Virus record (IMG/VR): IMGVR_UViG_3300009034_000003 | Source of the DNA: a virus | Lineage: Duplodnaviria > Heunggongvirae > Uroviricota > Caudoviricetes | Length of the DNA: 64,000 nucleotides | Reading direction: 5' to 3' (one strand) | Shown: positions 7,218 through 57,449 of the stretch, in pieces | How positions within the stretch are numbered: the first letter of the stretch is position 1 | Layout of the letters: every line of letters begins with the position of its first letter | The notes under the pieces: model-generated | The model's input: only the letters and a program-made list of their open reading frames with translations | Database searches by the model: none | What the model was told of the DNA's origin: nothing | Translations under genes and position numbers: made by a program

Positions 7218-9560
7218 ATGGAGGAAACGAGAGAGGAAGCGGGATTTAGTATCCCGCTTCAGAAGATCAACTTTGATGCAAGCATCACTGGGATGTTTGC
7301 GCAGGTAAGCTGCGAACAGGAATTTGAGAATCAGAACGATGTTCCTGTTGAAGCAGTTTACGTATTTCCGTTGCCAGAGGACGCGTCGGTAGCGGGATGT
7401 GAAATAGTTATAGGTGACAAGAGAATAGAGGCGGAGCTAAAGGAGAAGGAGCAAGCCAAAAAAGAGTACGACGACGCAGTGGCTGCTGGTCATCACGCCG
7501 GTCTCTTAGAACAGCGAAGAGCAAATATCTTCGCAATTAACGTAGGCGGTATAGAGCCTGGTGAGAACATCAAGGTAGTTATCGTCTACAACCAGCGAGT
7601 CCCTTGGCAGGACAGCGGCGGAAGGTTCACTATTCCGTTGGTGGTAGCTCCTCGATTCATTCCAGGAGAGCCAAGTGGTTCTAAGACTGGAGAAGGCTGG
7701 GCAGAGGATACCGATGAAGTGCCCGACGCATCCCAGATCACACCAGTAGTAGCAAGGGAAGGTGTTAGCTATACCGCTGACATCGCTGTGACCTTGTCTC
7801 CAGGGTTCAAGTGTCAGGTCAGTAGTCCTAGCCATGAGATGGTAGAGAGCCTTGTCAAGGAGAATTCAGGAAAAAAGACAAGGTACGACATCATTGATTT
7901 GGAGATCGATACTCCTACTAAGCCAATCACGATTGAGGTCAAGGACCTAGTGCCGGATCGCGACTTCATTGTGAGCTACCAGACAAAGTCGACTCAGATT
8001 GGAACTGGAGTACATAGGGGAAGCTTCGAAGGCGAGGCGTACGTCACCATTGACGTCATCCCTCCTGGTGCCGCTTCACCTAAGCCCAAAGATGTTATTT
8101 TCTGTTTGGATACTTCCGGTAGTATGGGCGGACCTAAGCTGGACGGATTGAAGGTTGTAGCTGAGAAGGTCGCCAAGCGCCTATCCGAACAGAATAAAGA
8201 GACTCGGATAGGGATAGTGGCCTTTGCGAGTGAGGTCCATCCGCTCCGGCCATTATCCGGAGTTTCCGAAGCTACTTACAAGGAAATTCAGGGATTAGAA
8301 TCAGGCGGCGGTACATACGCTGGCAAGGCGCTTAATCACTGTTTCCAGCAGCTAGCAGCGGGAAGTAACAGAGAGAAGTACATCTTGCTCGTTAGCGATG
8401 GTCAGACGCAAGATAAGTGGTCGAGCGCAGTACCTGGCATTCGGGTTGTTTCTGTAGGTATAGGCACAGCAACAAACATGGCCTACTTGAAGGAAATAGC
8501 TCGAGAGACCAAAGGCGTAAGCCTCGCTGTTTATCCAGGCGAGGATTATGACACTGTAGCAAGTACTTTAGCTGGGTATCTCGCGGGTCCAGTGCTCACG
8601 GATATCGAGGTGACCGTAGATGGTAAGGCACTGGCTGATGTCCTGGGGATCACCGATGTCTATGCATCGATGCCTGCTTCTCTTGCTCTGAGGATAACTG
8701 AGCCAGAGGTAAATTGGCCAGAGAATATTCAGCTAGTCGGTATGGACAGTAAGGGAAAGAAGTCGGTGCTCGTCCTCGATATGAAAGATGTCGGTGAATG
8801 TCTCTTCGCTCATCAGATCTGGGCCAAAGAGAAGCTACGCGACCGGGATCTTTCTGCTGAGGACATTGTCGCACTCAGTTTGAAGTTCGGTGTCCTTTGC
8901 AGTGCAACGGCATTTGTTGCAGTGCATCTAAAGGACGTGCCTGGAGCCAAGCCGGAGCGGATAGCGATTCCGGTGGATTTACCTCACACCTGGGATTACG
9001 AAAGGATATTCGGTGAAGAGGTACCGGTTGGAGGAGTTATTTCCGGTCGGCGCATTCGTGGTCTAGTTTCGGGCGTCTACGCGTCCCGTGCGCTAGGGGA
9101 ATCGAGTGACGGGTACAGGCCGCCCGGTGTGTATCCTGAGAAGATGATGGAGTCGTTGTTGGATCTTGGCGAACCATCGACATCCGCTAGTAGTTCTTCC
9201 AGTACATCCACTTCGGGCCCAGAATACAAGACGCGTGCCCCAGAAGTAAAAGCGATCCACGCTCAAGTCGTGGATGCGCTTGAGAATTTTGTCGATGAAC
9301 TCGAGCAGGATTCTATAGAGAGGGCCGCTGCAGTTGTACTCTGGGAGTCTTTGAAAAAGCAGATAACTAGGGAGAGCGTGGCTTTTTGGCCTGCCGATCA
9401 AAAATCACGGGCGTTCTACCTTCTCCTTAAGCTGCGAGCCTTCGGGTTTCATGGGGCAAAGGATGTCTTGAAGTTGCTTTCTATAGAGCCCAGTTCATTA
9501 GATCCCCTTGCCCATGGATGGTGGGAAAAGGCGCAACTGATCCTGGGAGTAGCAGTGTGA
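7218..9560 (+). CDS. VIT domain + von Willebrand factor A (vWA) domain protein
   Basis: N-terminal VIT-like block (YVFPLPEDASVAGCEIVIGDKRIEAELKEKEQAKKEYDDAVAAG...IFAINVGGIEPGENIKVVIVY); central vWA with MIDAS motif DTSGS (VIFCLDTSGSMGG...ILLVSDGQ). Confidence 0.75.
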   Translation: MEETREEAGFSIPLQKINFDASITGMFAQVSCEQEFENQNDVPVEAVYVFPLPEDASVAGCEIVIGDKRIEAELKEKEQAKKEYDDAVAAGHHAGLLEQRRANIFAINVGGIEPGENIKVVIVYNQRVPWQDSGGRFTIPLVVAPRFIPGEPSGSKTGEGWAEDTDEVPDASQITPVVAREGVSYTADIAVTLSPGFKCQVSSPSHEMVESLVKENSGKKTRYDIIDLEIDTPTKPITIEVKDLVPDRDFIVSYQTKSTQIGTGVHRGSFEGEAYVTIDVIPPGAASPKPKDVIFCLDTSGSMGGPKLDGLKVVAEKVAKRLSEQNKETRIGIVAFASEVHPLRPLSGVSEATYKEIQGLESGGGTYAGKALNHCFQQLAAGSNREKYILLVSDGQTQDKWSSAVPGIRVVSVGIGTATNMAYLKEIARETKGVSLAVYPGEDYDTVASTLAGYLAGPVLTDIEVTVDGKALADVLGITDVYASMPASLALRITEPEVNWPENIQLVGMDSKGKKSVLVLDMKDVGECLFAHQIWAKEKLRDRDLSAEDIVALSLKFGVLCSATAFVAVHLKDVPGAKPERIAIPVDLPHTWDYERIFGEEVPVGGVISGRRIRGLVSGVYASRALGESSDGYRPPGVYPEKMMESLLDLGEPSTSASSSSSTSTSGPEYKTRAPEVKAIHAQVVDALENFVDELEQDSIERAAAVVLWESLKKQITRESVAFWPADQKSRAFYLLLKLRAFGFHGAKDVLKLLSIEPSSLDPLAHGWWEKAQLILGVAV

Positions 9561-28352: not shown

Positions 28353-29231
28353 ATGCATGATATATTTGAGGTAGCATATGGTACAATTGTTGGTCGGGAC
28401 CACCTTTATACGGGAAGAGGAATCCGGAAGACCTTGATCGGAGCTAATAACCAGGATGGCTTTCGTCTTCTTTGTGGCGACGACTATATCATCGCAGTTG
28501 TTAGCGACGGGTGTGGTAGTAGCCGTAACAGCGAAGTCGGAGCACGGGTTGGGTCACATCTTGTTGTGGAGACCATCTATCGTAATCTGGAAAAACACTA
28601 TGCTGGATTTACGTCATTAGGTCTAGATAATGTGGAGCAATTTCTAGAGCGCGTAAGACTAGACGTTTTGTCTCATCTTCGAATTTTAGCTAATAGCATG
28701 AGTTCAGGTCTATCGCGAGTAGTTAACAGCAATTTCTTTTTCACTGTGCTAGGTGTGATAGTGACGTGGGACCACGCAGTGATCTTTTCCATAGGCGATG
28801 GTTATTTCTTTGTCAACGGAGAAATGACCGCCATTAGTTTTCCTGAGAATACACCTCCATATATTGCGTACGGCGTTACAGGGTCTACGTTAACTTATGA
28901 GCATCCTGAGCTTCTTCATTTTCAAGTTCATAAGGTGATGCCTATTGAAGATGTCGAGACGCTTTTAGTTGGAACGGATGGATTGAAGTATATGATCGAT
29001 GCCGAAGCGCAGAATGTCCCTGGAAAGCAAGAGTTAGTTGGTCCCGTGAGTCAGTTCTGGGAGGATGATCGCTATTTTGCAAATGAGTTCATGGTTACAC
29101 GAAGGTTCGGCCTTGTTAACCGCGATTACCTAAATATTGATTGGGATAATAGGCGCTTGACAGAAGAGCAAGGGAAGCTAAGGGATGATACTACGCTAGT
29201 GGTTATCAGGAAAAAGGGATATAATGGTTAA
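28353..29231 (+). CDS. PP2C/PPM-family Ser/Thr protein phosphatase
   Basis: VVSDGCGSS, SIGDGYFFVNGE and LLVGTDGL match the PPM metal-binding aspartate blocks; agagga RBS before ATG 28353 (ORF track begins at 28311, inside the promoter motif). Confidence 0.55.
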   Translation: MHDIFEVAYGTIVGRDHLYTGRGIRKTLIGANNQDGFRLLCGDDYIIAVVSDGCGSSRNSEVGARVGSHLVVETIYRNLEKHYAGFTSLGLDNVEQFLERVRLDVLSHLRILANSMSSGLSRVVNSNFFFTVLGVIVTWDHAVIFSIGDGYFFVNGEMTAISFPENTPPYIAYGVTGSTLTYEHPELLHFQVHKVMPIEDVETLLVGTDGLKYMIDAEAQNVPGKQELVGPVSQFWEDDRYFANEFMVTRRFGLVNRDYLNIDWDNRRLTEEQGKLRDDTTLVVIRKKGYNG

Positions 29232-31125
29232 CGAAGTATATATAAACGGAAAAAGAATAGCACTTGATCCTACTCGCTCGATTGGCATAGGTGGGGAGGC
29301 CGAGATTTTTGATATCGGAACCGATGCTTTGAAGGTGTTCAAAACTCCTGACCATCCTGACTACAAGAACCCTGATGGCAGTGATAATCGTGTAGAACAA
29401 GAGGGAGCTCTTGATCGAATTCAAGTTCATCAGCGAAAGCTACCTGCTCTGATGCAGTTAGCATCCCGACTTCCTGATCACATCGTTACGCCTAAAGAAC
29501 TTGGCACCGACCGCAACGGGCAGGTGGTCGTAGGTTATACGATGCTTCGTCTGGATGATGTCGAGCCTATTCTTCAGTTTTTTAAGAGGGACTTTCACGA
29601 TAAAGGACTCTCAAATAACATTGTTACAAGAGTCTTCTACGAATTGTACAAGATGATTTCAGGTGGTCATAGTGCTGAGTTTATCATTGGTGATTTTAAT
29701 CCGCTCAATGTGCTCGTGACCGCAAAATGGGCTCCCTATGTCATCGATGTAGATAGTGGGCAGTTTGCTAAGTTCCTGTGCAAAGTTTACACAGAACGTT
29801 ATGTGGATCCGTTGCTTTGTGATCCCGGTGCGAAGGCACCTACCCTCTCGAAACCTTATAACAAGTATTCAGACTGGTATTCTTTTACTGTTATGCTCTT
29901 CACATCTCTTTTGTGTGTAAACCCTCATGGAGGCGTATATAAGCCAAAAGGGAAGATTAAACGGATGACCCCTGGCGCAAGAGTACTTCAACGTATTACG
30001 GTCTTCGATCCAGATATAGTCTATCCCAGAGCCTCTTTAGCTTTTCATTTCGGAATCCTGCCTGACGATCTAATGCAACAATTTTATAGGACATTCAAGA
30101 AAGACGAGCGCGGTGCATTCCCTATTAACCTTCTTGAAGATATTCGCTGGACTAAGTGTACAGTTTGCGGTTTGGAACACGCTAGGTCAAGGTGTCCTTC
30201 ATGCGACAAGGCACCTCCTACAGCGATCAAGGAAGTGACTGTGGTGAGAGGTAAAGTGAAAGCTATACGGATTTTCAAGACATCAGGCCTTATCGTCTTT
30301 GCAGATCGCCAAAACGATAAGCTTCTTTGGTTATATCATGAGGGCGGCAAGTATAAACGAGAAGATGGTAAGGTAGCCGCGGAGGGTAGTCTTAATGCGC
30401 GTTTGAGGTTTCGTATTCAAGGGGATCGTACGCTTCTCGGTCAAAAGGGAACCCTTTTAACTATTTTGCCAGAATATAGTCCTACCCGCAGGCGTATCGA
30501 TAACTATGTGAACTTACCTATATTTGATGCTAATCAGGAGCACGTTTATTGGTTGGATGGAGGTAGACTTGAGCGCGAGGATAAAATCGCTCCAAAGCAT
30601 ATCGGAAACGTCTTAGCAGGGCAAACCCTTTTCTGGGTTGGGCCTACATTTGGTTTCGGTTTCTATAGAGCTGGGTCCTATAACGTGGCTTTTGTGTTTG
30701 ATGCGGAGCGTACCGGAATCAATGACTCGGTTAAGATATCACCAATCCGCGGTCAACTTATTGATTCTACATGTTTCTTTACTAAAAAGCTTTGCTGGTT
30801 TCTTGTGGCGACTCAAGAGAGCGGTAAGACTATACATCGGTGTTCTGTTATTCGACCTGATGGTTCCGTTGAAGCGACTGCAGAAGCTGAAGCTGGCGAC
30901 GGGTCGTGGTTATCGCAGTTGCGAGGAAAGTGTGCTTTAGGAAGATTTTTGTTTGTGGCAACAGACTCGGGTATCATTAGAGTAGAACCTACTGGCGGAC
31001 GTATTGTGAAAAGTGGCGAATTTCCTGATACGGAGCAGTTCGTTGATAGTGGTTGCCACCTTTTTTCTGGAGAAGGGATCTATGTTGTAGATCGTCATGA
31101 GATCAGGCTTCTTCAGATTGGGTAG
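29224..31125 (+). CDS. Hanks-type Ser/Thr protein kinase with C-terminal zinc-ribbon-containing extension
   Basis: Gly-rich loop IGIGGEAEIF, lysine ALKVFK, catalytic loop IIGDFNPLNVLV (D..N), DFG-like VIDVDSG; then CTVCGLEHARSRCPSCDK and a roughly 350-aa C-terminal region. Confidence 0.65.
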   Translation: MVNEVYINGKRIALDPTRSIGIGGEAEIFDIGTDALKVFKTPDHPDYKNPDGSDNRVEQEGALDRIQVHQRKLPALMQLASRLPDHIVTPKELGTDRNGQVVVGYTMLRLDDVEPILQFFKRDFHDKGLSNNIVTRVFYELYKMISGGHSAEFIIGDFNPLNVLVTAKWAPYVIDVDSGQFAKFLCKVYTERYVDPLLCDPGAKAPTLSKPYNKYSDWYSFTVMLFTSLLCVNPHGGVYKPKGKIKRMTPGARVLQRITVFDPDIVYPRASLAFHFGILPDDLMQQFYRTFKKDERGAFPINLLEDIRWTKCTVCGLEHARSRCPSCDKAPPTAIKEVTVVRGKVKAIRIFKTSGLIVFADRQNDKLLWLYHEGGKYKREDGKVAAEGSLNARLRFRIQGDRTLLGQKGTLLTILPEYSPTRRRIDNYVNLPIFDANQEHVYWLDGGRLEREDKIAPKHIGNVLAGQTLFWVGPTFGFGFYRAGSYNVAFVFDAERTGINDSVKISPIRGQLIDSTCFFTKKLCWFLVATQESGKTIHRCSVIRPDGSVEATAEAEAGDGSWLSQLRGKCALGRFLFVATDSGIIRVEPTGGRIVKSGEFPDTEQFVDSGCHLFSGEGIYVVDRHEIRLLQIG

Positions 31126-34688: not shown

Positions 34689-34783
34689 CAAAACCCCATC
34701 CGAAGGGTTCCGGAGCGCTTTAATCTTTGTTTATGATACCTCGGCTGCGCTTTGGAGCCCTTTGGCTTAGGGAGGAAGTAGAT

Positions 34784-36160
34784 ATGCGATATATGATGCT
34801 AGTAATAGCAGTAATTTCAATGGGCACTTTGATAGTAAATTGTGTTCTAGGAAATGTAGTCACATTGTTTGAAGACAACGAGCCTTTAGCTGGAAGATTG
34901 ACAGGTGGAGATGCAGTTGTAAGTATCGAACGCTTCGATGTCTATCATGGATCAAGAGCAATTAAGGTTGCTGCACCTATAATTGGGAACACAGGCCAAG
35001 CAAATAGCAGGTGCATTCTCGACTGGGAGTACAAAGTTGTCAAAAGACCGGTCGGAAGCAACGAAGTTCGATGGGTTATGTTCGCATGGAAAAAGCCAGA
35101 CAGCGACGGCATTATGGTTCAGTTTGCTGATGACTGCAGCTGGGGAGCGAATGTTCTCAGGTATTTTGCTGGTAAGAACCTCTCGGGATGGAAAGCCATT
35201 AGGGTGAGCAATCATGTCCCGCGAGGGTGGCAGATTGTGATCAGGGACCTATATTCCGATTTCGGCAATTTTACGTTGACCGGCATATCCCTCACACCTT
35301 TTAATGGTGTTGGGCTATTTGATTCTATTTATCTGGCAAAGAGCAAAGAAGATCTGCTTTCAGTCTTTGAGCCCACGCTAGGCACCGAGGTGTTTGTGGA
35401 TACTCCTAGCCGGGTGAGCGACGGCGCTACTTTTACTGCTTCTATAGAGGTTCGAAATGTATACGATTTAGCCGGATTTGAGATGGAAGTGAGCTTTAAT
35501 CCCGATGTTATTAAGGTTAACAGGGTAGAAGAGGGTACTTTTCTATCGAGCGGCGGGGTGACGTATTGGCTAAACCCCGATGATGATAATAGCAGAGGGA
35601 AGATAACCGAGATTGCATGTGTTCGAACGGACGGACGCAGTGGTGATGGTACCCTATTTACTATAGTATTTAAGGCTCGAGACGAAGGGAGTAGCAACAT
35701 TGTACTGGAAAATGTACGTTTAGCTGATTCAGAAGTCAGGATTATACCCACCAAAGTAACGGATGCCAGTGTGGAAGTGGCAACTGTTCCGCGCTGGGAT
35801 GTTAACGCTGACGGACGTGTCGATTTCCTTGATTTAGTAATAGTGGCACAGCATTTCGGGGAGTATATAAACCAGCCGGGCGAGGAAAATCCAGACGTTA
35901 CCGGCGACGGGAAAGTGGATGTAACAGACCTTATCACGGTGGGAAGGCACTATGGAGATGTCTATGGGGATGCCGCTCCAAGTAAACTCGCTTACTCTGT
36001 GCCGTTACGATTTGTACCATCCCTTGAAAAAGCACTTGATTTAGTTCGAAGTAGCCCTCATCCTGATAAAACCACTATAAAGTTGTTGATGGGCTTGATA
36101 AAGAATGCCAAGCCTATCAAAGACTCTACTTGGGGAGCACGCAAGTTCGAGCTAAGGTGA
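34784..36160 (+). CDS. secreted cohesin domain + dockerin domain protein
   Basis: Signal peptide MRYMMLVIAVISMGTLIVNC after gggagga RBS; cohesin-like block (FTASIEVRNVYDLAGFEMEVSFNPDVIKV...LFTIVFKARDEGSSNIVLENVRLAD); duplicated dockerin Ca-binding repeats DVNADGRVDFLDLVIVAQHFG and DVTGDGKVDVTDLITVGRHYG. Confidence 0.6.
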   Translation: MRYMMLVIAVISMGTLIVNCVLGNVVTLFEDNEPLAGRLTGGDAVVSIERFDVYHGSRAIKVAAPIIGNTGQANSRCILDWEYKVVKRPVGSNEVRWVMFAWKKPDSDGIMVQFADDCSWGANVLRYFAGKNLSGWKAIRVSNHVPRGWQIVIRDLYSDFGNFTLTGISLTPFNGVGLFDSIYLAKSKEDLLSVFEPTLGTEVFVDTPSRVSDGATFTASIEVRNVYDLAGFEMEVSFNPDVIKVNRVEEGTFLSSGGVTYWLNPDDDNSRGKITEIACVRTDGRSGDGTLFTIVFKARDEGSSNIVLENVRLADSEVRIIPTKVTDASVEVATVPRWDVNADGRVDFLDLVIVAQHFGEYINQPGEENPDVTGDGKVDVTDLITVGRHYGDVYGDAAPSKLAYSVPLRFVPSLEKALDLVRSSPHPDKTTIKLLMGLIKNAKPIKDSTWGARKFELR

Positions 36161-36582: not shown

Positions 36583-36966
36583 GTGGATCTATCGGAACAT
36601 TTGCTTAGGTCTTTGACTTCTGCTTACTGGGTGATCCGTTCTTTGCCGCATCTTGGGAGACTCAGTGCCAACGAGAAAGAGTTAATGTCTTTAGGCTTGC
36701 TTGAGGTTGACATTGTAGGTATGGACGATCCTCCGGAGGACAGAAGATATGAGATAAAGATATCAGACGCAGGGGCACAGCTGGTTGAGGAGCGTTGCGT
36801 TCTAGCTTTGATAGAGTACGGCTGTGCGTCCGGCGTTGTGTACGGTAACAAAGTAAACGATTTGATTAAAAAAGTTCCCAAGGAGCGGCTTCCCAGGTTG
36901 CTAGCAAGCGATAACAATATTGTACGGCAAGTGGCAAAGGCACGATTAGAAGATGGAATTAACTGA
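36583..36966 (+). CDS. HEAT-tail family protein
   Basis: LLRSLTSAYWV N-terminal motif; C-terminal ERLPRLLASDNNIVRQVAKARLEDG. Confidence 0.55.
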   Translation: MDLSEHLLRSLTSAYWVIRSLPHLGRLSANEKELMSLGLLEVDIVGMDDPPEDRRYEIKISDAGAQLVEERCVLALIEYGCASGVVYGNKVNDLIKKVPKERLPRLLASDNNIVRQVAKARLEDGIN

Positions 36967-37339
36967 GGAACAAGTCGATTGGTTGGTTGAGCATTACGTT
37001 AATCCTGGACGTGCTCGAGGGAAGATGCCTTCACTTGAGCAGTCACTCCTAGACCTAGGTCTGATAAAGAGTGAGTGTTTTCCTACAAGGGACACGAATA
37101 TATACGTTCTATCGCTTACTGAAGAGGGATGGAAGGAAGCTGCCGGGTACAGGTTTGCAGAAGTAGTGGAGAAGTGCAAGGGAGTATTTTCTGGGGAGGC
37201 TATAGGAAGAGTCGTGATAGGTGGGTTGTCCCTAGGTGCTTTACCAGTACTACTCAGCAATGAAAGTGTGCTAGTGCAGAAATATGCGTCCAAGAGGCTC
37301 GAGCAGCTAAGGCATGAGAATGACTGTGGAGATAGCTGA
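36953..37339 (+). CDS. HEAT-tail family protein
   Basis: VDWLVEHYV N-terminal motif; C-terminal GALPVLLSNESVLVQKYASKRLEQL. Confidence 0.55.
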   Translation: MELTEEQVDWLVEHYVNPGRARGKMPSLEQSLLDLGLIKSECFPTRDTNIYVLSLTEEGWKEAAGYRFAEVVEKCKGVFSGEAIGRVVIGGLSLGALPVLLSNESVLVQKYASKRLEQLRHENDCGDS

Positions 37340-37724
37340 TAAGGAATTCGAGTTAGCAGTGCTTATGTATGTACAAGAGCCTCAAATGTACCCCTTGGGT
37401 AGGGCGCAAGAGCTATTTGATCTAGGTATATTTCGGTCAAGTGGACAGTTTGGTCTCGTTGAGAATAGTACGAAGCTCAAGAGAGGCGAGGCTATTTACG
37501 GGGTTACGCTTGCGCAAAGAGGCGTTGATTTAATTGCTCAAGCTGATCCTGTGAGGGTAGCTCGGATATGGATAGATCATGATTTTATAGTAGCTGGTAC
37601 GGGGTGGATTCTAAGTAAGATGTCACGTGATCAATTGCCTGAATTCTTGTCTCATGAGAGCCAAGAGGTAAGGAAGGCAGCATTTGCACGCCTACAGGAC
37701 CTAGAACGCGAAGCCAATGGGTAA
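37314..37724 (+). CDS. HEAT-tail family protein
   Basis: C-terminal DQLPEFLSHESQEVRKAAFARLQDLE. Confidence 0.55.
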   Translation: MRMTVEIADKEFELAVLMYVQEPQMYPLGRAQELFDLGIFRSSGQFGLVENSTKLKRGEAIYGVTLAQRGVDLIAQADPVRVARIWIDHDFIVAGTGWILSKMSRDQLPEFLSHESQEVRKAAFARLQDLEREANG

Positions 37725-38148
37725 GGCAAACGTGCTAACTCTAAATGACAAGCACATCGGTATATTGGCTGAGTTATATTGGAACGGGTCTCAATTCTCA
37801 CGAACTACACCGGAATTGCGCAAAGAAATCGAGGAGCTAATTGAAGAAGGTTTTATTGAGGAACGTCGTACATTTTTCAAGGTTCTACAGTGGCAGTGGT
37901 GTGTTCGACTTACTGGAGCTGGTGAAAAAGTCCATATGGCGATGGATCCTGTGCGCGTTTTTAATCATTACATGAGAACTGCTGATTCTTCGCGAACACT
38001 TCCAGCGGCGTGTGCCGCGGTAGCTAAATTTACACTAGATCAATTGCCGGGAGCTCTTGCACACGAGAACGAGAAGGTAAGGGAAGCCGCTACAGAGAGA
38101 TTGAGAGAGCTATCTCGTGGACCCTACTACTGTGAAACTAACGGATGA
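37717..38148 (+). CDS. HEAT-tail family protein
   Basis: C-terminal DQLPGALAHENEKVREAATERLRELS. Confidence 0.55.
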   Translation: MGKANVLTLNDKHIGILAELYWNGSQFSRTTPELRKEIEELIEEGFIEERRTFFKVLQWQWCVRLTGAGEKVHMAMDPVRVFNHYMRTADSSRTLPAACAAVAKFTLDQLPGALAHENEKVREAATERLRELSRGPYYCETNG

Positions 38149-38563
38149 GGAGCTAGACTTATTGGCAACAGCGTATGTGAAGAATTACGCTCTTGCGGTT
38201 CCGCCGCCACAACGCCCTGTAGAAGTTAGTCCGGTAGCAGAAGAACTTGTAGACGCTGGTCTTCTCAAAGAAGACTACACGCTTGCAGAAAAGCCTCTTG
38301 GCAACGAGAGAATCAATTTGGTAAGGCCTACCGTAAAGGGGATAGCTGTTCTAAAAGAGATGGATCCCGTACGGGTGCTCGAAGCCCTTGTGCGGACGGA
38401 TGCTACTGGTGCAGGTACTGGTATTGCTGTTTTCTGGATACTTCGGCGGTTGTCTCTTGAGCAATTGCCTTTGGTCTTGTCGCATGAAATGGAGAGCTTG
38501 CGCAAGGCAGCAAAAACAAGGATGGATGAATTCGAGGGGGATGAAGCAAGTAGATCTGAGTAA
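38117..38563 (+). CDS. HEAT-tail family protein
   Basis: C-terminal EQLPLVLSHEMESLRKAAKTRMDEFE. Confidence 0.55.
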   Translation: MDPTTVKLTDEELDLLATAYVKNYALAVPPPQRPVEVSPVAEELVDAGLLKEDYTLAEKPLGNERINLVRPTVKGIAVLKEMDPVRVLEALVRTDATGAGTGIAVFWILRRLSLEQLPLVLSHEMESLRKAAKTRMDEFEGDEASRSE

Positions 38564-39080
38564 ATTGGAAATGGAAGACGCGTTCGCTGTTTCTGTGGCC
38601 CGTGCTACTGCAGTCCTTCGAGGAGAAGTAGTGCGTATGGCCGCGAATAGGAAACCTGTGCCTGTGCACAGCTGTCTCAATGGCAGAGGATGCTACATGA
38701 TAAGAGCGTTTTTTGACCGGTTAGTGGATTTCCGGTTTGTTCGGCCGACATCTTATGGAGGTTTCAATATAACTGATGTAGATCGAGAGCTGGAACGGTA
38801 CGGATTGATCAAGATTATTGAGAAACCACAAGAGCAAGGGTATCTTCTAGGAGAGGCAATTACAACGGCTGCGCAGTTTAGTGTAGAGGTCACCGAGGAT
38901 GGCGAAGAATTTATTGAGAATGTCGATCCTATGGAATTGGCTTATTCTTTTATAAGGCAAGAGCTCCTTCCGCTGCTGGAGCGATTGATGCCTATGCTTG
39001 GGAAGGAAGCGTTGCCTGTATTTCTAACCCATTGGTCCCCCCGCGTACAGGAGATTGCTTTATCGTGTTTAGAGAGGTAG
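38541..39080 (+). CDS. HEAT-tail family protein
   Basis: C-terminal EALPVFLTHWSPRVQEIALSCLER; start moved to the Met after gaggggg (ORF track starts at 38388, overlapping the upstream gene). Confidence 0.45.
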   Translation: MKQVDLSKLEMEDAFAVSVARATAVLRGEVVRMAANRKPVPVHSCLNGRGCYMIRAFFDRLVDFRFVRPTSYGGFNITDVDRELERYGLIKIIEKPQEQGYLLGEAITTAAQFSVEVTEDGEEFIENVDPMELAYSFIRQELLPLLERLMPMLGKEALPVFLTHWSPRVQEIALSCLER

Positions 39081-39424
39081 TAACCGTGCCCGATGTACTA
39101 TTTCATAGAGTCTTGGGCGGCTATAGCGGTGAAACTGCAGAGAGTATAGAGCACGCCATTGAGGACATTATGAAAGTAGGTCTAGTGCCAAAAGTGGCGG
39201 ACGAATACAAAGGACTTGTTCCCGAAGAAATAAGGGATCGGCCTATCATTTGGCTAGGACGAGCAGATTTTTTCTCGCATAGTGAACAGGTGTTGTCTAT
39301 AAGAACAAAGTATCTTGATCCGGAGAGTTTATACGACTTGCAGCTAGATGATGTCGACTGGTGGGTGTATCAGGGACATATTCCACCGGAAGCTATTCGG
39401 AGAATTTCGACAGAAGGAGAATAA
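39032..39424 (+). CDS. hypothetical protein
   Basis: 130 aa. Confidence 0.4.
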   Translation: MVPPRTGDCFIVFREVVTVPDVLFHRVLGGYSGETAESIEHAIEDIMKVGLVPKVADEYKGLVPEEIRDRPIIWLGRADFFSHSEQVLSIRTKYLDPESLYDLQLDDVDWWVYQGHIPPEAIRRISTEGE

Positions 39425-39427
39425 CGT

Positions 39428-40462
39428 ATGAGTACGCGACTGGATCCGTCACCAATAGATTTTGAAAAACTTCGCCATAAGTTCTCAAGTATTCATGGCT
39501 TGACTATAGGCGATCAGACTCTGGATAGGAATTGCTCAGGGCAGTACGAAGGGTACTCAAGAGAGAAGGAGAGTCTTCCGATTTTTAGGGTTGCGCACGA
39601 GGTTTTTGGGCCAGGTGGTGCAGGTAACCTTGCTGCCAACTACTCCACCCTTGGTATCGGAACATCTGTTGCAGGTGTATGGGGTTATCCAACCGATCCT
39701 CATCGGAGATTGCTGGAGATGAGGTTCGATGAACTGGGGATAGATGCTACAGGTATGGTAGAGGGAGCGAGCACTCCCACTTTTGAAAAGTACTACTTTC
39801 CGAATGGAATGCATGTTATAAGGGTTGATGTTGCTTCTGGTGATTTGGCGGACTCTACAAGGCGCCAACTTATCGAGAGAGTCAGTCATTTTTTATCTAT
39901 TGACTTGGATTTTGTAGCTGTTGCTGACTACGATGATACAGGAAAGGGTGTGTGTAGCCAGCAGGTTCTGGAAGCAGTTGCATCTAGTGCATTGGTTCAG
40001 TTCGGAACTAGTAGACAGGGGATAAGGTCGTTCGTCGGTTTCGATACGTTGATGATTAACGAAAAGGAACTCTTTGAGTCCGTAGGAGACAGGCATCCGG
40101 ACCCCGAACGCAAAGCGGTATCGCTAATGTCTGTAACACAATCTAAGAAATTGGCTGTGACTCTCGGTGGACGCGGGATCCGTCTCTATCAGAGGAGCGG
40201 AAAGGTTATTGATTTAACCAGGGAAAACCCACTTAACGCAGCTGATGTTCCGGCATTTCCATTGGATGGTATGATAGATACTTGTGGATGTGGTGATACT
40301 TCTTTTGCGATGCTTTCTGCTAGTTTGGTGGCCGGATATACGTTCAAGGAGAGTGCCGTTCTCGCTAATAGTGCAGCTCGAGCAGCTGCGCGAAAGCTTT
40401 TTGGAGCTCATCCAGTTACTCTTGAAGAGGTAGAACGGGAATATAGGGAAGTGTATAGTTAG
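39428..40462 (+). CDS. PfkB-family sugar kinase resembling HldE domain I (D-glycero-beta-D-manno-heptose-7-phosphate kinase)
   Basis: GPGGAGNLAAN (compare RPGGAANVA), DTCGCGDTSFA (compare DVTGAGDTV) and C-terminal ANSAARAAARKLFGAHPVTLEEVE (compare [23 protein letters not shown]). Confidence 0.6.
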   Translation: MSTRLDPSPIDFEKLRHKFSSIHGLTIGDQTLDRNCSGQYEGYSREKESLPIFRVAHEVFGPGGAGNLAANYSTLGIGTSVAGVWGYPTDPHRRLLEMRFDELGIDATGMVEGASTPTFEKYYFPNGMHVIRVDVASGDLADSTRRQLIERVSHFLSIDLDFVAVADYDDTGKGVCSQQVLEAVASSALVQFGTSRQGIRSFVGFDTLMINEKELFESVGDRHPDPERKAVSLMSVTQSKKLAVTLGGRGIRLYQRSGKVIDLTRENPLNAADVPAFPLDGMIDTCGCGDTSFAMLSASLVAGYTFKESAVLANSAARAAARKLFGAHPVTLEEVEREYREVYS

Positions 40463-40482
40463 TACAGTAGGAGGAATGGTAT

Positions 40483-40713
40483 ATGGGTGAAGAGCAACTA
40501 AAGGAGATAGCTGAAGAGACTATAGAGGATCTTAACCTTAGCTTAGAGATAAGCATTCGTCAAACATTAAGCAAGAGAATGGAGCGACTGGAGAGGGACC
40601 GCATTTATCTTGGTAATGGGTACCACAGAGCTCAAAAGATGACCGCAAAGCTAATGCCTGGGATCAAAGAGCTTTTACCCGGTCTGGTGAATGAAGCTTT
40701 GCATATCGAATGA
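40483..40713 (+). CDS. hypothetical protein
   Basis: 76 aa; ggaggaatggtatATG RBS. Confidence 0.45.
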   Translation: MGEEQLKEIAEETIEDLNLSLEISIRQTLSKRMERLERDRIYLGNGYHRAQKMTAKLMPGIKELLPGLVNEALHIE

Positions 40714-41228
40714 GTGATAGTAACTTATCGGATTTGCATCTAAATATATTGGTCACTGTTTACTATACCAAAGGATCAGTATGCGTTGATGATCTCCGTG
40801 ACACATACAATTTTCTTGTGAAAGCAGGCCTAATGCGCTATACCGGGATGATGCGCGATATAGTTGCTATTCGTTCTATGTCTAGTCCTATGCTTGTAGA
40901 GAGGGTACCTGGACCAACAATACATATAGCCGTTGCCGCTACGGAGGAAGGCCAAGAGTTAGTTGCGGGCATGAATATTGCTCGTAAGGTTGAAGCGTGC
41001 GTTGCTATGGGAGATATTGAAGCTACTAAGGCACTTGCAAATAGTCTTTCTATGGAAGAGCTTCCGCCGTTACTTGCTAGCGACTGTGGATTTGTTAGGA
41101 GTGCTGCGAAAGATAGATTGACTGCTCTTGGGGATGATACGCAAGTAGAAAAGGATTCTGGCGGGAAGATGTATTTCATCGATGTACACGGAGGACATGT
41201 TGCATGCATCAAAGGGCTCGCGAATTGA
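40710..41228 (+). CDS. HEAT-tail family protein
   Basis: HLNILVTVYYT N-terminal motif; C-terminal EELPPLLASDCGFVRSAAKDRLTALG. Confidence 0.55.
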   Translation: MSDSNLSDLHLNILVTVYYTKGSVCVDDLRDTYNFLVKAGLMRYTGMMRDIVAIRSMSSPMLVERVPGPTIHIAVAATEEGQELVAGMNIARKVEACVAMGDIEATKALANSLSMEELPPLLASDCGFVRSAAKDRLTALGDDTQVEKDSGGKMYFIDVHGGHVACIKGLAN

Positions 41229-41452
41229 CAAATAAGTGGCGCGTACTCGCTGCACTTATGGACGGCGTGTCTCTTGAGGCACTACCTTCGCTCCTAGCTA
41301 GTGAGGATACTATGACGAGGGAGTTAGCTAGCAGGAGACTCCAGGAGTGTCTAGATTCTATGTCCGCTGAAGAGCTTCCGAGGTTTTTGGCTGATACAGA
41401 TTCCTTGGTGCGTGAGGTTGCAGGCGATCTGTTAGAAAGAAAGGTAAAGTGA
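41204..41452 (+). CDS. HEAT-tail family protein with two tandem HEAT-like repeats
   Basis: EALPSLLASEDTMTRELASRRLQECL and EELPRFLADTDSLVREVAGDLLERK. Confidence 0.5.
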   Translation: MHQRARELTNKWRVLAALMDGVSLEALPSLLASEDTMTRELASRRLQECLDSMSAEELPRFLADTDSLVREVAGDLLERKVK

Positions 41453-41458
41453 AGTCTC

Positions 41459-42004
41459 ATGATTTTGTCAAAAGAGGAGCTACTGGAGGATCTTGAAGCG
41501 TTCAGGCATATGGGCCGTAAAATTGTCACTACTAATGGTGTTTACGATATCATTCATGTAGGGCATACACGTTATTTGGAGGGCGCAAGGACGTGTGGTG
41601 ATATACTGATTGTGTTACTGAATAGCGATGAGTCGGTCCGTAATATTAAGGGGGCGGGCAGGCCTTTGGTTCCTGAGATGGAGAGGGCAGAGGTTCTTGA
41701 CTCTCTTGGAACCGTTGATTATGTAGTTTTGTTCAATGAACCAACACCGGATGCGCTACTCTCTGAGATAAGACCCGATGTTCATGTAAAGGGCGGGAAC
41801 TACGCTGTTAACGAGTTACCAGAAGCTGAGCTGGTTGAGTCTCTTGGTGGAACGGTCCTCACCTTAAACTATGTCGCGGGGAGGTCTACAACTAAACTGA
41901 TACAGGAGATCGTGACAAGATTTGGTACTTTCACTAAGGCGGTGCGAGCAGAAGAGCCCGATCCTAGTCAGGGTGCAGAGCCGACTGGAGGGAAAAATGG
42001 CTAA
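41459..42004 (+). CDS. D-glycero-beta-D-manno-heptose-1-phosphate adenylyltransferase (HldE domain II / RfaE-II-like cytidylyltransferase fold)
   Basis: NGVYDIIHVGHTRYLEGA (HxGH nucleotidyltransferase motif), NSDESVRNIKGAGRPLVP, VDYVVLFNEPTPDALLSEIRPDVHVKGGNY and GGTVLTLNYVAGRSTTKLIQEI closely follow the HldE-II consensus. Confidence 0.7.
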   Translation: MILSKEELLEDLEAFRHMGRKIVTTNGVYDIIHVGHTRYLEGARTCGDILIVLLNSDESVRNIKGAGRPLVPEMERAEVLDSLGTVDYVVLFNEPTPDALLSEIRPDVHVKGGNYAVNELPEAELVESLGGTVLTLNYVAGRSTTKLIQEIVTRFGTFTKAVRAEEPDPSQGAEPTGGKNG

Positions 42005-42530
42005 GGCAATGGTGTTGATAGCTGACGGCGTTGAGGATTTAGAGTTCTTCTATCCCAAGATTCGCCTTGAGGAAGCGGGCTTTGAAGTGTTAGTGGTAGG
42101 TGAGCTGGCGCAGGAATATGAGACGAAGCACGGGTATAAGGTTGACGCCCAAATAGCGTCGATCAATGATGCCCTGGAATGCTCTGTGTTAATTATTCCA
42201 GGTGGGACAGCTCCGGATAAACTGCGCCAAGATCCACAGATGCTTGAGATCACAAGGGAAATGGTGAATGCAGGGAAGATTGTTGGAGCTATATGTCACG
42301 GGCCCTTGGTGCTAGTTTCTGCTAAGGTGGTTGAAGGGAGAACGATGACTTCGTGGCCAGGGATTAAGGATGACCTTGTGAATGCTGGTGCTGATTGGAT
42401 AGATATGCCCGTGGTTCGTGATAGGAATATGGTAACAAGTAGGAAGCCGGATGATCTCTCCGCTTTTATGGAAGCGATTTGCAGTATGGCTGAGGTAGCG
42501 CGGCTATATCCTGAGGGGCAAACACAGTGA
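41997..42530 (+). CDS. DJ-1/PfpI family protein
   Basis: VLIADGVEDLEF...IPGG...AICHGP (nucleophile Cys elbow); start moved to the Met after ggaggg. Confidence 0.65.
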   Translation: MAKAMVLIADGVEDLEFFYPKIRLEEAGFEVLVVGELAQEYETKHGYKVDAQIASINDALECSVLIIPGGTAPDKLRQDPQMLEITREMVNAGKIVGAICHGPLVLVSAKVVEGRTMTSWPGIKDDLVNAGADWIDMPVVRDRNMVTSRKPDDLSAFMEAICSMAEVARLYPEGQTQ

Positions 42531-42784
42531 CTGCTGGTAGGTTAGCAAATGTACAGAAGGCTTATGAGAACAATTTAGGATTTCGGAAGGGGCAAACGGT
42601 TCTTGTGTATACAGGAGGTGTTCGTCATGTCTTTCGGGGTGTAGCAAATCTGCGCATAAACCTTGGCGATAGTATTTTGACCATAGAGATGCCGGGTGGC
42701 AACACCGTTTTTCATAGCTGGAGCGGTTTAGGTGTTGTTGATGCGGAGCAGGCTGGTACTTTTGAACTGAAGCAAATGTCCTAG
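42527..42784 (+). CDS. hypothetical protein
   Basis: 85 aa. Confidence 0.4.
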   Translation: MTAGRLANVQKAYENNLGFRKGQTVLVYTGGVRHVFRGVANLRINLGDSILTIEMPGGNTVFHSWSGLGVVDAEQAGTFELKQMS

Positions 42785-42847
42785 TAACATGTGAAATTTT
42801 GTGACTTCTCGTGCCGGATTTCATATAATAAAATGAGGAGGCTTATT

Positions 42848-43360
42848 ATGGCTTTAACTGACATCAAAACCTCGATCATAAATGCAAAGGGTAGAAAAGA
42901 TGGGGAAAGGGTTGCGATAAGGTATCTAGACCCGAGAATGCGACAGTTCATCCTGGCTAACAGGGTGTATGTTCTTTCACGGGTGCACCACAAACCCATT
43001 GTGTTATTAACCCCCAAGCGAGACGCCACTCTCATCGATACTGATCTTGTTTCAGAGGTTATCAGAGTAGTGCAAAGATGTGCAGATCAGATCAATAGCA
43101 AACGCACAGTTCAATCGCTGGCCACCTTTGCCCAACTAGAGAGGATGCTAGAGTTGGCTGAAATCCTCGCCAAGCGAAAGGATAACGCTATTTTGCTACC
43201 GGCGAAGCTCTGGAAGCTCAAGCATGGTGAGGCTGGTAGGTGGATCCACGATGCTAAAACCATTTTGATAGATGAAGGTATGTGGGACGATGTGGAAAAG
43301 TGCGAGATTCCCAAAGTTCCTAGGAAAGGAGTCAAAAGTGGAAAAAGAGCAGCCGACTGA
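42848..43360 (+). CDS. hypothetical protein
   Basis: aatgaggaggcttattATG RBS; 170 aa. Confidence 0.45.
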   Translation: MALTDIKTSIINAKGRKDGERVAIRYLDPRMRQFILANRVYVLSRVHHKPIVLLTPKRDATLIDTDLVSEVIRVVQRCADQINSKRTVQSLATFAQLERMLELAEILAKRKDNAILLPAKLWKLKHGEAGRWIHDAKTILIDEGMWDDVEKCEIPKVPRKGVKSGKRAAD

Positions 43361-43733
43361 TGATGCTCCTCGACAGAGTTTCCGTGTTGTCGGTGGAGCC
43401 GAGGCAGCGAAGGTGGAGGTACAACCTCCTGTGTCAGGTGCACGTAAGATTGTTGCTTTAACCTCCATCAGAAACGACTATTTTCTAGTGGTGCCTGTAA
43501 GAGATACTCCCGCCGAGGGATTTTCTCTTAGGGAGGATGGATACGAGGCGCACGAGGCCAAAGGTCAAGTTGAAGCCCTTCTTGGTCCTAATGCCTATCT
43601 TGATGGAGCCGTTTGGGCAAAGGCTATTTCTATGGTCAAGTCCGGCGGGAAAGTGAAATTGATTCTCGGGGAGGTTCCTATTAAGGTAGAAGACGAAAAG
43701 AAGTTTCCCATTGAGATCCAGAAAGGTACCTGA
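43338..43733 (+). CDS. hypothetical protein
   Basis: GTG start after aaggag RBS; ORF track begins at 43272. Confidence 0.35.
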   Translation: MEKEQPTDDAPRQSFRVVGGAEAAKVEVQPPVSGARKIVALTSIRNDYFLVVPVRDTPAEGFSLREDGYEAHEAKGQVEALLGPNAYLDGAVWAKAISMVKSGGKVKLILGEVPIKVEDEKKFPIEIQKGT

Positions 43734-44976: not shown

Positions 44977-45241
44977 GCGTCTTGTTGATGGTATGCAGGA
45001 GACCTTGGAGACGGAGGGTTTTGTTCTTTATTCTAAGTCTCTCAGAGATAAGATGTCGTTGTTGGTGATGTTTCATCCCGACCAAGAGAGGTTCGTGTTT
45101 TACGTCTTCAAGAACGATTCTCTAGGAGAGTGCGAACGCATCGACGTTTTTGTCCATATGGCCGTGGCGAAGGCGGCTGCATCTAGGTCACAGGAGGATC
45201 AACAAGAGGATGGAGATATTTGGCTTAGAGATAACCAATGA
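44939..45241 (+). CDS. hypothetical protein
   Basis: 100 aa. Confidence 0.4.
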   Translation: MFCKGRAMELSVERLVDGMQETLETEGFVLYSKSLRDKMSLLVMFHPDQERFVFYVFKNDSLGECERIDVFVHMAVAKAAASRSQEDQQEDGDIWLRDNQ

Positions 45242-46271
45242 GACACTTGAGCGTGCTTTGATCAAAGCGTATCATCAAGATCTCGGTATACGCGACTATG
45301 AAGTTGAATTTAGTTCTGAGATTCCGGGAAGGCGTCTTGCGAAGGTAACTCTCTTCATCCAGACAGCTTCCGGCGTAAAGTCTATGGAGATATTGGTCAA
45401 AGAGTGCTCTGAGCACGAGCTTGTGGTATTGAGCATTGCAAATAAGCTTCTGCCTTATTCTAGTCCCAAGGTGATCCTCTACAGACCCGCTGCTAAAGGA
45501 ATGTGGGTACTCTTAGAGAACGTTTCTAAGTGGGTTGATATTGGAGGCGAAAGTCGCACAAACGAGAGCATGTTGGATGGGCTTTTCGCGATCCATAAGG
45601 TGTTTTTCGACAATGTGCAAGCTTTGCTGGATAATTTTAATGTGTTTTCGGTTGTTACCAAAGAGACATTGAGGTCAGGCGTCTTACGCGCTTTGCAGGA
45701 CGTAGACGAGATACGCTCGGATCGCGTTGTGGTAGAGCTTTTTGAGGACTGGAGTCAGGTTCAAGAGAGTGCTAATTCTAAACTGAGCAGCTTGGATAAG
45801 CTAGACTTCCCGATGACCGTTTTACACGGGAGTTATTACCCTAACACCGTGAGAGGGATGCGCGACGCGGAGGGTCGATTCCATGTTGTTGCTTACGATT
45901 GGCAGTACAGCGGAATAGGATGGCCGCAGATAGATCTAGCACTGCTACTTGACAGATTAGATTTGATCGCGGAGTCTCGGGGCCAGAAGGGTCCTTCACC
46001 TGTGTTGTTGGAGAGATATTGGACGCGGGTGCATGAGGAATTCGGGAGAGTGGACTATGATCAATTCAAGAGCGTGTATGAGGTTTGCTATCTCTATAGA
46101 GCTGTTCCACTGATACGGTGGCATGCAAAGAATTTCGCTGCCCATCCTTCGCAAGGACCAGGCAGGGCGGTTCGTGAAATTAAGATGAAGCTTGATAGGA
46201 TCATTGGCAAGGAGAGTGAGCAGGTTTCAGAGGATTCGGGGGTTTCATATGGCGCGCAAGCGCAAGCGTAA
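45210..46271 (+). CDS. protein-kinase-like fold (APH/phosphotransferase family) protein with altered catalytic motif
   Basis: HGSYYPNTV (compare HGDxxPxN; Asp replaced by Ser) and DWQYSGIG (compare DFE..G). Confidence 0.4.
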   Translation: MEIFGLEITNETLERALIKAYHQDLGIRDYEVEFSSEIPGRRLAKVTLFIQTASGVKSMEILVKECSEHELVVLSIANKLLPYSSPKVILYRPAAKGMWVLLENVSKWVDIGGESRTNESMLDGLFAIHKVFFDNVQALLDNFNVFSVVTKETLRSGVLRALQDVDEIRSDRVVVELFEDWSQVQESANSKLSSLDKLDFPMTVLHGSYYPNTVRGMRDAEGRFHVVAYDWQYSGIGWPQIDLALLLDRLDLIAESRGQKGPSPVLLERYWTRVHEEFGRVDYDQFKSVYEVCYLYRAVPLIRWHAKNFAAHPSQGPGRAVREIKMKLDRIIGKESEQVSEDSGVSYGAQAQA

Positions 46272-56064: not shown

Positions 56065-56846
56065 AGATAGCTCATATAGCACCGAAGAAGCACCTAGAAC
56101 TCACTGATCGAGGCGATTTCTACTTTGTTCTAGCTCACATAGCAATGAGGAGCAAGAGGTATAGGAATTACTTTAAGGATAGAGATCGCGAGATATACTT
56201 AGATAACGGTGTGTGGGAGACTGGAAGACCTTTAGACACCAGGACTATGATCGAACTAGCCATTGAGATGCAGCCCGATTATATATACGCTACGGACTAT
56301 ATTAACGATGCAGCTAGAACCATCCAGGCCGTTGAGAATTTTTGTCGAGCTGCAGCGAGACATCCAAAGGATTTCAAGTCAAAGATTGTAGCTACGGCGC
56401 AGGGAAGTACTCGAAACGTTTGGTACGCATGTATACAGCACCTTTCGAAGATTGACGGCGTCGATGTGATCGCTATACCACGACATCCGGTTAGAGATTT
56501 GTACGAGTATGAGGAAAATCGCGGGTTGCGAATGACTAAGACGCGACTAGATATTTGTCATTTACTGGATACGGAACTGCAGAAGTTCGATAGCAAGGAG
56601 TTTTATGCTACTGGCGCAGGCGCTGCAATATGCGCTAAGGAATTAGCTAGATATCCTTGGATTACCGGGTTAGATACTACAATGGCATGTCTGCTAGCTA
56701 GCCAAAATGTACGAATCTCAGGGAAATTTGCGCGATATAAACCAGATGAGAAACTTGATTTCAATGCCGAATTTGCGCAGGAGCAGTTGGATGCTGCTGA
56801 ATTTAACATAGGTGTACTGAACCGATGGGCACACGGAGAAGAGTAA
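56061..56846 (+). CDS. hypothetical protein (261 aa) between folE and dNMP kinase
   Basis: No motif recognised with confidence. Confidence 0.45.
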   Translation: MKIAHIAPKKHLELTDRGDFYFVLAHIAMRSKRYRNYFKDRDREIYLDNGVWETGRPLDTRTMIELAIEMQPDYIYATDYINDAARTIQAVENFCRAAARHPKDFKSKIVATAQGSTRNVWYACIQHLSKIDGVDVIAIPRHPVRDLYEYEENRGLRMTKTRLDICHLLDTELQKFDSKEFYATGAGAAICAKELARYPWITGLDTTMACLLASQNVRISGKFARYKPDEKLDFNAEFAQEQLDAAEFNIGVLNRWAHGEE

Positions 56847-57449
56847 ATGGGAAGGTTTTTTGCTTTTGAGGGGATAAGCCGAGCGGGAAAGACGACGGCG
56901 TGTGGTCATGTTGAACGTCGGCTAGAGGAGATCGGGGAATCTGTGCGGCGCGAGCACGGGGGCTTTATCCTTGGTGCACGGGTTGCCGACGCGTTCGGGA
57001 CGTACCCGGACGAGGTAGTTTATATGCTCTTCTGGCAAGCGTTTCGACTTCTTGAGCTAGACAAAATTACACCGGCTCTTAACGAGGGCAAAATTGTTTT
57101 AGTTGACCGTTATGTATTGTCGAATCTTGCCCATAATTGGTGGACGGGTCTCGATCGGGATTTCCAATTGCGTACGGAGAGAGAGTACATACAACGCTGC
57201 TTGTTTCCAAGTATATATTTTGTGTTTACTGTTCCCTATGGACTTTTCTTAGAGCGCGGTGGCGACGGTGCTAAAGTGGACCGGGCTCTATTTGAGAAGA
57301 TACACCAGGACTACATTACCTGGGCACTACGTTTGTCTAACAACGGATTTTGTAAAACAATTCTTGTAGATGGTTCGAAGTCAGAAGAAGCCGTTGGTGA
57401 TTTTGTAATGCACTATATACGAAAAGAAATAGGTTTGGAGGGTGGCTAA
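56847..57449 (+). CDS. tmk: thymidylate/dNMP kinase
   Basis: P-loop FEGISRAGKTT, DRY motif VDRYVLSN; about 200 aa. Confidence 0.7.
   Translation: MGRFFAFEGISRAGKTTACGHVERRLEEIGESVRREHGGFILGARVADAFGTYPDEVVYMLFWQAFRLLELDKITPALNEGKIVLVDRYVLSNLAHNWWTGLDRDFQLRTEREYIQRCLFPSIYFVFTVPYGLFLERGGDGAKVDRALFEKIHQDYITWALRLSNNGFCKTILVDGSKSEEAVGDFVMHYIRKEIGLEGG

Follow-up and report, generated by a model that had tools for sequence, protein, structure and literature searches.

The 64-kb window analysed here, meaning the whole stretch of 64,000 nucleotides from IMG/VR record IMGVR_UViG_3300009034_000003, comes from a phage-like genome (related contigs are labelled L001, L002, L004 and so on) and carries two neighbouring + strand genes for enzymes of nucleotide-sugar metabolism. 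The kinase gene (39428–40462), with an ATG start and an AAGGAG Shine-Dalgarno sequence upstream, encodes a predicted stand-alone PfkB-fold sugar-phosphate kinase of 344 amino acids (aa), HldA-like and member of a divergent clade. The transferase gene (41459–42004) encodes a predicted HldC-type heptose-1-phosphate adenylyltransferase of 181 aa. Both open reading frames (ORFs) lie where the initial annotation, made from the letters alone, had placed them and hold the motifs that it quoted: GPGGAGNLA, DTCGCGDTS and ANSAARAAARKLF in the kinase, and HVGHTRYLE, NSDESVRNIKGAGRPLVP, KGGNY and GRSTTKLIQEI in the transferase. Their profile matches are far above chance, and three ORFs (40483–40713, 40710–41228 and 41204–41452) separate the two genes, also as described.

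Two stand-alone enzymes related to HldA and HldC

The transferase is, judged by its sequence, a genuine, canonical HldC-type enzyme. It scored 182.4 bits (3.9e-54) against the NCBIfam model TIGR02199 rfaE_dom_II, a marginal pass of the curated cut-off of 181.5, and the competing models for TagD (glycerol-3-phosphate cytidylyltransferase) and CoaD reached 28 and 24 bits; TagD, NadD, CoaD and RibL were ruled out as assignments, their scores being lower by tens of orders of magnitude. Its best match in the PDB is Burkholderia pseudomallei HldC (5x9q, 2.4e-29), in which five motifs, TNG, NSD, KG, ExTP as well as KGG, have been predicted to contact heptose-1-phosphate (PMC7993394). When aligned to this enzyme, the phage protein keeps TTNG, HVGH, NSD, KGAG, EPTP, KGG and GRSTT, the RSTT nucleotide motif included, and the position of Phe143 is taken by an aromatic residue. 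The transferase matches PHROG 7878, and over 3,000 homologues were found for it at E ≤ 1e-10, mostly stand-alone proteins of ~160 aa that their sources name heptose-1-phosphate adenylyltransferase. The bacterial HldC P0061, 55% identical to the window transferase, sits in a lipopolysaccharide (LPS) core operon with the order GT9-GT9-GT1-GmhA(SIS)-HldA(PfkB)-HldC-KdsB-KdsA, and relatives at 41–48% identity are found in GmhB-HldC-HldD-HldA-GmhA operons.

For the kinase, sequence, profile and predicted fold all indicate HldA, the heptose-7-phosphate kinase, as the closest relative. The protein matched Pfam PfkB (4e-14, 53 bits) and, over residues 18–338, the NCBIfam model TIGR02198 rfaE_dom_I (8.5e-35, 120.4 bits), with a gap of 30 orders of magnitude to the next-best NCBIfam entry, a ribokinase model (8e-5, 22 bits). 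B. cenocepacia HldA (4e84) was its sole sequence match in the PDB, and a profile built from 18 clade members matched HldA there over the full length (5e-16) and ribokinase only in the C-terminal half (1e-9). The AlphaFold (AF2) model has a predicted local distance difference test score (pLDDT) of 90.5; the top seven Foldseek hits of this model are all HldA (E ~5e-25, template modelling score 0.77–0.87), and ribokinases follow (E ~3e-19). Invariant across the 18 clade sequences are D284-x-C-G-x-G-D290, which includes the catalytic GxGD aspartate Asp290, as well as N211-x-x-E214 and the di-glycine motif P62-G-G-A-x-N67. A tblastn search with the kinase against 50,697 phage records gave no match at 1e-5. 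Ribokinases and other PfkB subfamilies were ruled out, scoring lower by tens of orders of magnitude. The outcome that the initial annotation had named as contrary to its reading, a kinase of the ribokinase or another PfkB subfamily and a transferase of the TagD/NadD type, was looked for and not obtained, since the kinase is HldA-like and not ribokinase-like.

Calling the pair a "split HldE", as had been done, proved a misnomer. The model of the Escherichia coli bifunctional HldE (RfaE), NF008454, recognises both proteins, aligning its residues 6–312 with the kinase and 322–472 with the transferase, but the HldE fusion measures ~475 aa, whereas the window holds two ORFs 1 kb apart, which score 79 and 163 bits against a cut-off of 521. 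A fused HldE broken by insertions was rejected because the closest relatives of kinase and transferase are not the same: identity to a bacterial HldC is 55% for the transferase, but identity to the partner kinase of that same HldC is only 27% for the kinase. Each gene stands alone, one of the HldA type and one of the HldC type, and the two are not fragments of a disrupted hldE. Their layout, a PfkB kinase of ~330 aa and a cytidylyltransferase-fold adenylyltransferase of ~160 aa, is that of the stand-alone HldA and HldC of Burkholderia and many other bacteria, from which the best structure matches (4e84 and 5x9q) also come. Compared with bacterial operons such as the Verrucomicrobiota-type GmhB-HldC-HldD-HldA-GmhA-WaaF, the transferase is 41–55% identical to the HldC proteins; in contrast, the kinase is 25–30% identical to the HldA proteins, and GmhA, GmhB, HldD and GT9 heptosyltransferases are absent alongside the window pair. 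The equation of the transferase with HldC or HldE domain II was borne out by the TIGR02199 pass and the retained motifs.

The kinase clade and its gene neighbourhoods

The kinase belongs to a rare, distinct and divergent clade. Its homologues at 39–100% identity are all stand-alone proteins of ~330 aa, after which identity drops to 25–30% for canonical HldE and HldA. Two related phage lineages, L001/L002 and L004/L005, share the gene order of the window from the PP2C phosphatase gene to the 5'-3' exonuclease gene and carry both genes, with kinases 51–52% and transferases 56–58% identical to those of the window. In these relatives the kinase and transferase genes stand ~3 kb apart with an intervening gene set that differs from the window's; the HldC-type gene lies 1 kb downstream of the kinase in the window and 3 kb downstream in L001/L004. 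Among the genes in between is one for a 392-aa relative of class-I mannose-6-phosphate isomerase (phosphomannose isomerase, PMI; 1qwr, 3.6e-9 and 2.7e-8), whose His/Glu/His metal-site residues align. PMI-like cupin genes are located at 12000–13178 in L001, 11994–13172 in L004, 1143–1595 in L084 and 237–1349 in L133, in the last two directly after kinase-clade genes. No SIS-type GmhA, HldD or GT9 was found beside kinase-clade members; the PMI-like isomerase appears instead. Such a cupin may serve as an alternative isomerase in making a nucleotide sugar of heptose or mannose.

Further neighbours add to this picture. Two genes downstream of the kinase in L092 is a HAD phosphatase that is 29% identical to E. 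coli GmhB and carries its CxH...CxC motif, and L004 also has a gene for a GalU-like sugar-1-phosphate nucleotidyltransferase. In the phage-like contig L008 (1–8650), a cluster with GT1, GT2, GT7C and Gly_transf_sug glycosyltransferases, a CmcI-type methyltransferase and B12-radical-SAM genes lies directly upstream of the kinase, which implies that phages of the window's group make an elaborate glycan. Many IMG/VR viral contigs encode a kinase and a transferase without GmhA or GmhB, the two being apparently fused, adjacent or 3 kb apart (L075/L076). Taken together, the PMI-like, GmhB-like, HldC-type and glycosyltransferase genes near clade members support a role in nucleotide-sugar synthesis and point to a variant of the pathway.

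Phage HldE-type genes were already known, and the window locus adds another. PHROG 7878 is named for them, and pelagimyophages have rfaE as one of their listed LPS-related auxiliary genes (PMC7029224). Cyanophage P-SSM2 (PSSM2_309-313), like the window, has a separate HldC-like nucleotidyltransferase of PHROG 7878 by a carbohydrate kinase; unlike the window, it also has a phosphoheptose isomerase and a nucleotide-sugar epimerase. Related cyanomyoviruses carry rfaE as an auxiliary gene as well. The window transferase is 30–34% identical to the cyanophage transferases. For a long time, phage genes of the rfaE/hldE type have carried the label of LPS-related auxiliary genes with no function demonstrated for them. 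To these the present locus adds a clear-cut example from an uncultured and very divergent phage lineage; its kinase and transferase differ in their closest relatives, and the new lead is the divergent kinase clade with its link to a PMI-like isomerase.

Candidate routes to an ADP-activated sugar

By family and fold both proteins are nearest to ADP-heptose enzymes, with their catalytic motifs intact, and their linkage is conserved in related phages. With moderate confidence, we favour the view that they form a phage-borne nucleotide-sugar module supplying the two ATP-consuming steps of the ADP-heptose route. In this scheme the kinase would phosphorylate the anomeric position of a manno-configured sugar phosphate, the distal phosphate would be removed, and adenylylation by the transferase would then yield ADP-heptose or a closely similar compound. 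The isomerase, the phosphatase and the glycosyltransferase that consumes the product would be provided by the host or by the remainder of the roughly 123-kb genome outside the window. If the product is ADP-heptose, the host probably makes heptose-7-phosphate, and the phage would control both ATP-consuming steps during infection. We infer the exact sugar, the dependence on the host and the acceptor; the last could be a host envelope glycan (LPS-core heptosylation) or a phage-directed glycan, between which the evidence does not distinguish.

A number of observations weigh against the ADP-heptose assignment, beginning with the kinase itself. Its 120.4 bits on TIGR02198 fall below the equivalog cut-off of 345, other members of its clade score 107–121 bits, and a control, the HldA of the L164 operon, reached 347.5 bits on the same model and is 27% identical to the phage kinase. 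The clade is also small, with ~30 clusters (50% identity) above 200 bits in a hidden Markov model (HMM) search of 1.84 billion representatives. Membership of the kinase in the heptose-kinase equivalog family is thus not established, and given the sub-threshold score and the rare, divergent clade, heptose-7-phosphate is a presumed substrate. The earlier assignment of the kinase to HldE domain I holds to the extent that HldA and HldE domain I are its nearest relatives.

The remaining pathway steps are likewise missing from the neighbourhood. A Pfam scan (E ≤ 1e-3) of nearly all window ORFs gave no SIS, HAD, epimerase or glycosyltransferase domain, and tblastn with E. coli GmhA, GmhB, HldD, WaaF and WaaC found none of them in the window or in L001–L009; the same census recovered canonical GmhB-HldC-HldD-HldA-GmhA-WaaF operons in Verrucomicrobiota and Kiritimatiellales metagenome-assembled genomes (MAGs). 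The GmhA, GmhB and heptosyltransferase genes that the initial annotation had suggested looking for are accordingly absent from the window by both searches. Moreover, the L008 kinase has no transferase nearby, and the cellular clade members L006 and L009 adjoin glycolate-oxidase-like rather than heptose genes, a context that is uninformative. Finally, the isomerase linked to the clade is of the PMI and not the GmhA type, so a hexose such as mannose-6-phosphate could also be the kinase substrate.

This last point underlies an explanation that we consider possible though doubtful, in which the logic of the pathway is the same and the sugar differs. The kinase clade and a PMI-type isomerase would act on hexose phosphates (fructose-6-phosphate to mannose-6-phosphate to mannose-1,6-bisphosphate), or the PMI-like enzyme would provide a non-GmhA route to heptose-7-phosphate; what results would be ADP-mannose or a non-canonical ADP-manno-sugar in place of the usual LPS precursor. 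The PMI-like gene, with its metal ligands, lies between kinase and transferase in L001/L004 and follows the kinase in L084 and L133, no SIS-type GmhA was found beside any clade member, and the sub-threshold TIGR02198 score of the kinase fits as well. In addition, B. pseudomallei HldC takes beta-glucose-1-phosphate as a surrogate substrate (PMC7993394), which shows that the transferase step can be promiscuous. However, the window itself lacks a PMI-like gene, its transferase keeps all the predicted heptose-1-phosphate contact motifs and passes the HldC equivalog model, and HldA is still the best structural and sequence match of the kinase.

A broader and rather unlikely proposal is that the kinase clade marks an undescribed, GmhA-independent route to an ADP-activated manno-sugar. 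Here a class-I PMI-type cupin would replace the SIS-type GmhA, with the HldA-like kinase, a GmhB-like phosphatase and HldC acting after it in this order. A lineage of large uncultured phages would share the route with some uncultured bacteria and use it for phage-encoded glycan synthesis, as the L008 cluster suggests, and the window phage would have a reduced two-gene version.

That the two genes are not a functional pair at all is less probable still. The transferase alone would then boost ADP-heptose synthesis by the host, the kinase would serve sugar or nucleoside salvage, and their proximity would reflect the general synteny of the lineage. Three unrelated ORFs do lie between them, the L008 kinase stands without a nearby transferase, no HldC adjoins the cellular clade members, and synteny of the window with L001 and L004 extends over the whole 20-kb neighbourhood, so that co-retention is not specific to the kinase and transferase. 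Against this, ribokinase, adenosine kinase and other PfkB subfamilies are all far more distant from the kinase than HldA is, GmhB-like and PMI-like genes occur among the clade neighbours, and many unrelated viral contigs and cyanophage P-SSM2 have a kinase together with a transferase, fused, side by side or with a few kb in between.

The least probable explanation, and a very improbable one, is a sugar donor for glycosylating the phage's own DNA as in heptosyl-5-hydroxymethylcytosine clusters: it has a precedent in a metagenomic phage cluster (bioRxiv 10.1101/2023.12.21.572611) and a conceivable partner in an APH-fold protein conserved 3 kb downstream in the window lineage, but that protein has HGS for the catalytic HGD, the Pfam-scanned window ORFs include no glycosyltransferase, cytosine methyltransferase, TET/5mYOX enzyme or dCMP hydroxymethylase, and the modification genes that are present, FolE and a DpdA-like DNA guanine transglycosylase, point to a 7-deazaguanine system. 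In the precedent, the "contig 53" cluster, a HAD-APH kinase, a cytidylyltransferase-family enzyme and a GT-B glycosyltransferase yield mono- and di-heptosyl-5-hydroxymethylcytosine DNA in E. coli (bioRxiv 10.1101/2023.12.21.572611). Like the window, it combines a phage kinase with a cytidylyltransferase-family enzyme, there generating an activated heptose; unlike the window, its kinase is of the HAD-APH and not the PfkB type, and it requires a GT-B DNA glycosyltransferase and 5-hydroxymethylcytosine, neither of which was found in the window. Among the uses first proposed for the pair, namely remodelling of the host surface and donation of a sugar to DNA or protein, no single one can be selected from a window without GmhA, GmhB, HldD or a glycosyltransferase, and glycosylation of DNA is disfavoured, as no DNA glycosyltransferase or 5-hydroxymethylcytosine machinery was found and the DNA-modification genes form a 7-deazaguanine module.

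Intervening genes and genome context

Of the three ORFs between kinase and transferase, the first (40483–40713, + strand, 76 aa) overlaps the next gene by 4 bases, has no Pfam match and has no counterpart in L001, L004 or L008. The second (40710–41228, + strand, 172 aa, motif at residues 109–141) and the third (41204–41452, + strand, 82 aa, two motif copies) were assigned by iterated HMM to a family of small proteins with a HEAT-like motif, and homologues of the second immediately precede the transferase in L001 and L004. The family is recognised by a tail motif of ~30 aa, (D/E)xLPxxL(A/S)(S/H/D)xxxxVRxxAxxRLxxL, that resembles a single HEAT/PBS-lyase-type repeat. A shorter form of the motif reads ELPxxLASxxxxVRxxAxxRL. 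At least 22 copies of the family lie within 4330–41452 of the window, and the family accounts for about one-fifth of the window ORFs, with lengths of 80–230 aa (e.g., 20442–20891, 23187–23677, 36583–38148 and 40710–41452). Pfam gave no match for these ORFs. Relatives are also present in L001 and L004. This multigene family is large and phage-specific, and it is expanded across the window genome.

Immediately downstream, a DJ-1/PfpI-family gene (41997–42530, + strand; Pfam DJ-1_PfpI 173.7 bits, TIGR01382 167.6 bits) has an ATG that overlaps the transferase stop codon (ATGGCTAA) and a visible GGAGGG Shine-Dalgarno sequence, and is probably translationally coupled to the transferase. Its product carries the Cys-His nucleophile elbow (AICHG). 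The gene was rejected as a pathway member, since L001 and L004 do not have it at the corresponding position, and among the relatives examined it is particular to the window phage. Scans of 38500–43500 for promoters and terminators gave no signal above shuffled controls. With the same-strand block, and no convincing promoter or terminator between the two, the kinase and transferase probably share transcripts with adjacent early or middle genes.

The APH/choline-kinase-fold protein (45210–46271, 353 aa; AF2 pLDDT 84, Foldseek 1.5e-8), encoded ~3 kb downstream of the transferase, is conserved across the lineage and has ~30 homologues in the whole database. It reads HGSYYPN in place of the kinase motif HGDxxxxN, so the catalytic aspartate appears to be missing. 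The idea that it might be a hidden glycosyltransferase was rejected on the APH fold and the same HGS substitution.

That the pair is phage-encoded, as first claimed, is supported by the replication module. Matches to PHROG and Pfam identify a DnaB-like helicase, a DnaG-type primase and PolA, a family-A DNA polymerase, as well as a class I/II ribonucleotide reductase, a 5'-3' exonuclease and a phage metallopeptidase. Every sizeable ORF of the window lies on the + strand, with positive GC skew along the whole length, and no tRNA genes were found in the 64 kb. The phage label is well supported by these matches and by the unidirectional small genes without tRNAs; it rests on the replication module, and virion genes are absent from the window. 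Megablast of the 36–46 kb region against the 50,697 phage records gave no match, PolA is at most 32% identical to any cultured phage relative, and contigs scanned in IMG/VR and JGI yielded only distant relatives; the phage has no close cultured relative and belongs to a very divergent, uncultured lineage. The nearest genome-database matches to the kinase clade, a Poribacteria MAG fragment (54–56% identity over ~60 C-terminal residues, at a contig edge) and a weak match in Planctomycetota, do not single out a host.

Further along, 53396–59950 looks like a 7-deazaguanine DNA-modification module whose gene order matches that of Flavobacterium phage immuto. It comprises a phosphoribosyltransferase (53396–54028), GTP cyclohydrolase I (FolE, 54734–55495), the DpdA-like protein (56061–56846), a thymidylate-kinase-like protein (dTMP kinase, 56847–57449) and PolA. 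The DpdA-like protein (261 aa) is similar to DNA guanine transglycosylases of Flavobacterium, Cellulophaga and Campylobacter phages; QueC, QueD and QueE were not seen in the window. PolA (57449–59950) has an N-terminal domain of the uracil-DNA glycosylase superfamily (Pfam UDG, 5e-27), followed by 3'-5' exonuclease and polymerase domains.

Several other proteins of the window deserve mention. Cohesin and dockerin type I domains occur together in a 477-aa protein (34727–36160), and VIT and von Willebrand A domains in a 780-aa protein (7218–9560); both proteins are unusual in a phage replication or early region. A Thg1-like protein of the tRNA-His guanylyltransferase family and a transposase-like protein (phrog_4285, 1.4e-34) are encoded at 24649–25335 and 18842–19813. 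At 28311–31125, a gene for a PP2C-family phosphatase overlaps the start of a gene for a 633-aa protein, an arrangement conserved in L001 and L004. The 633-aa protein was tried and rejected as a glycosyltransferase, given only a weak Ser/Thr-kinase match and the adjacent PP2C phosphatase; the match is to the Ser/Thr-kinase region of LanL, and the two proteins may form a phosphatase/kinase pair.

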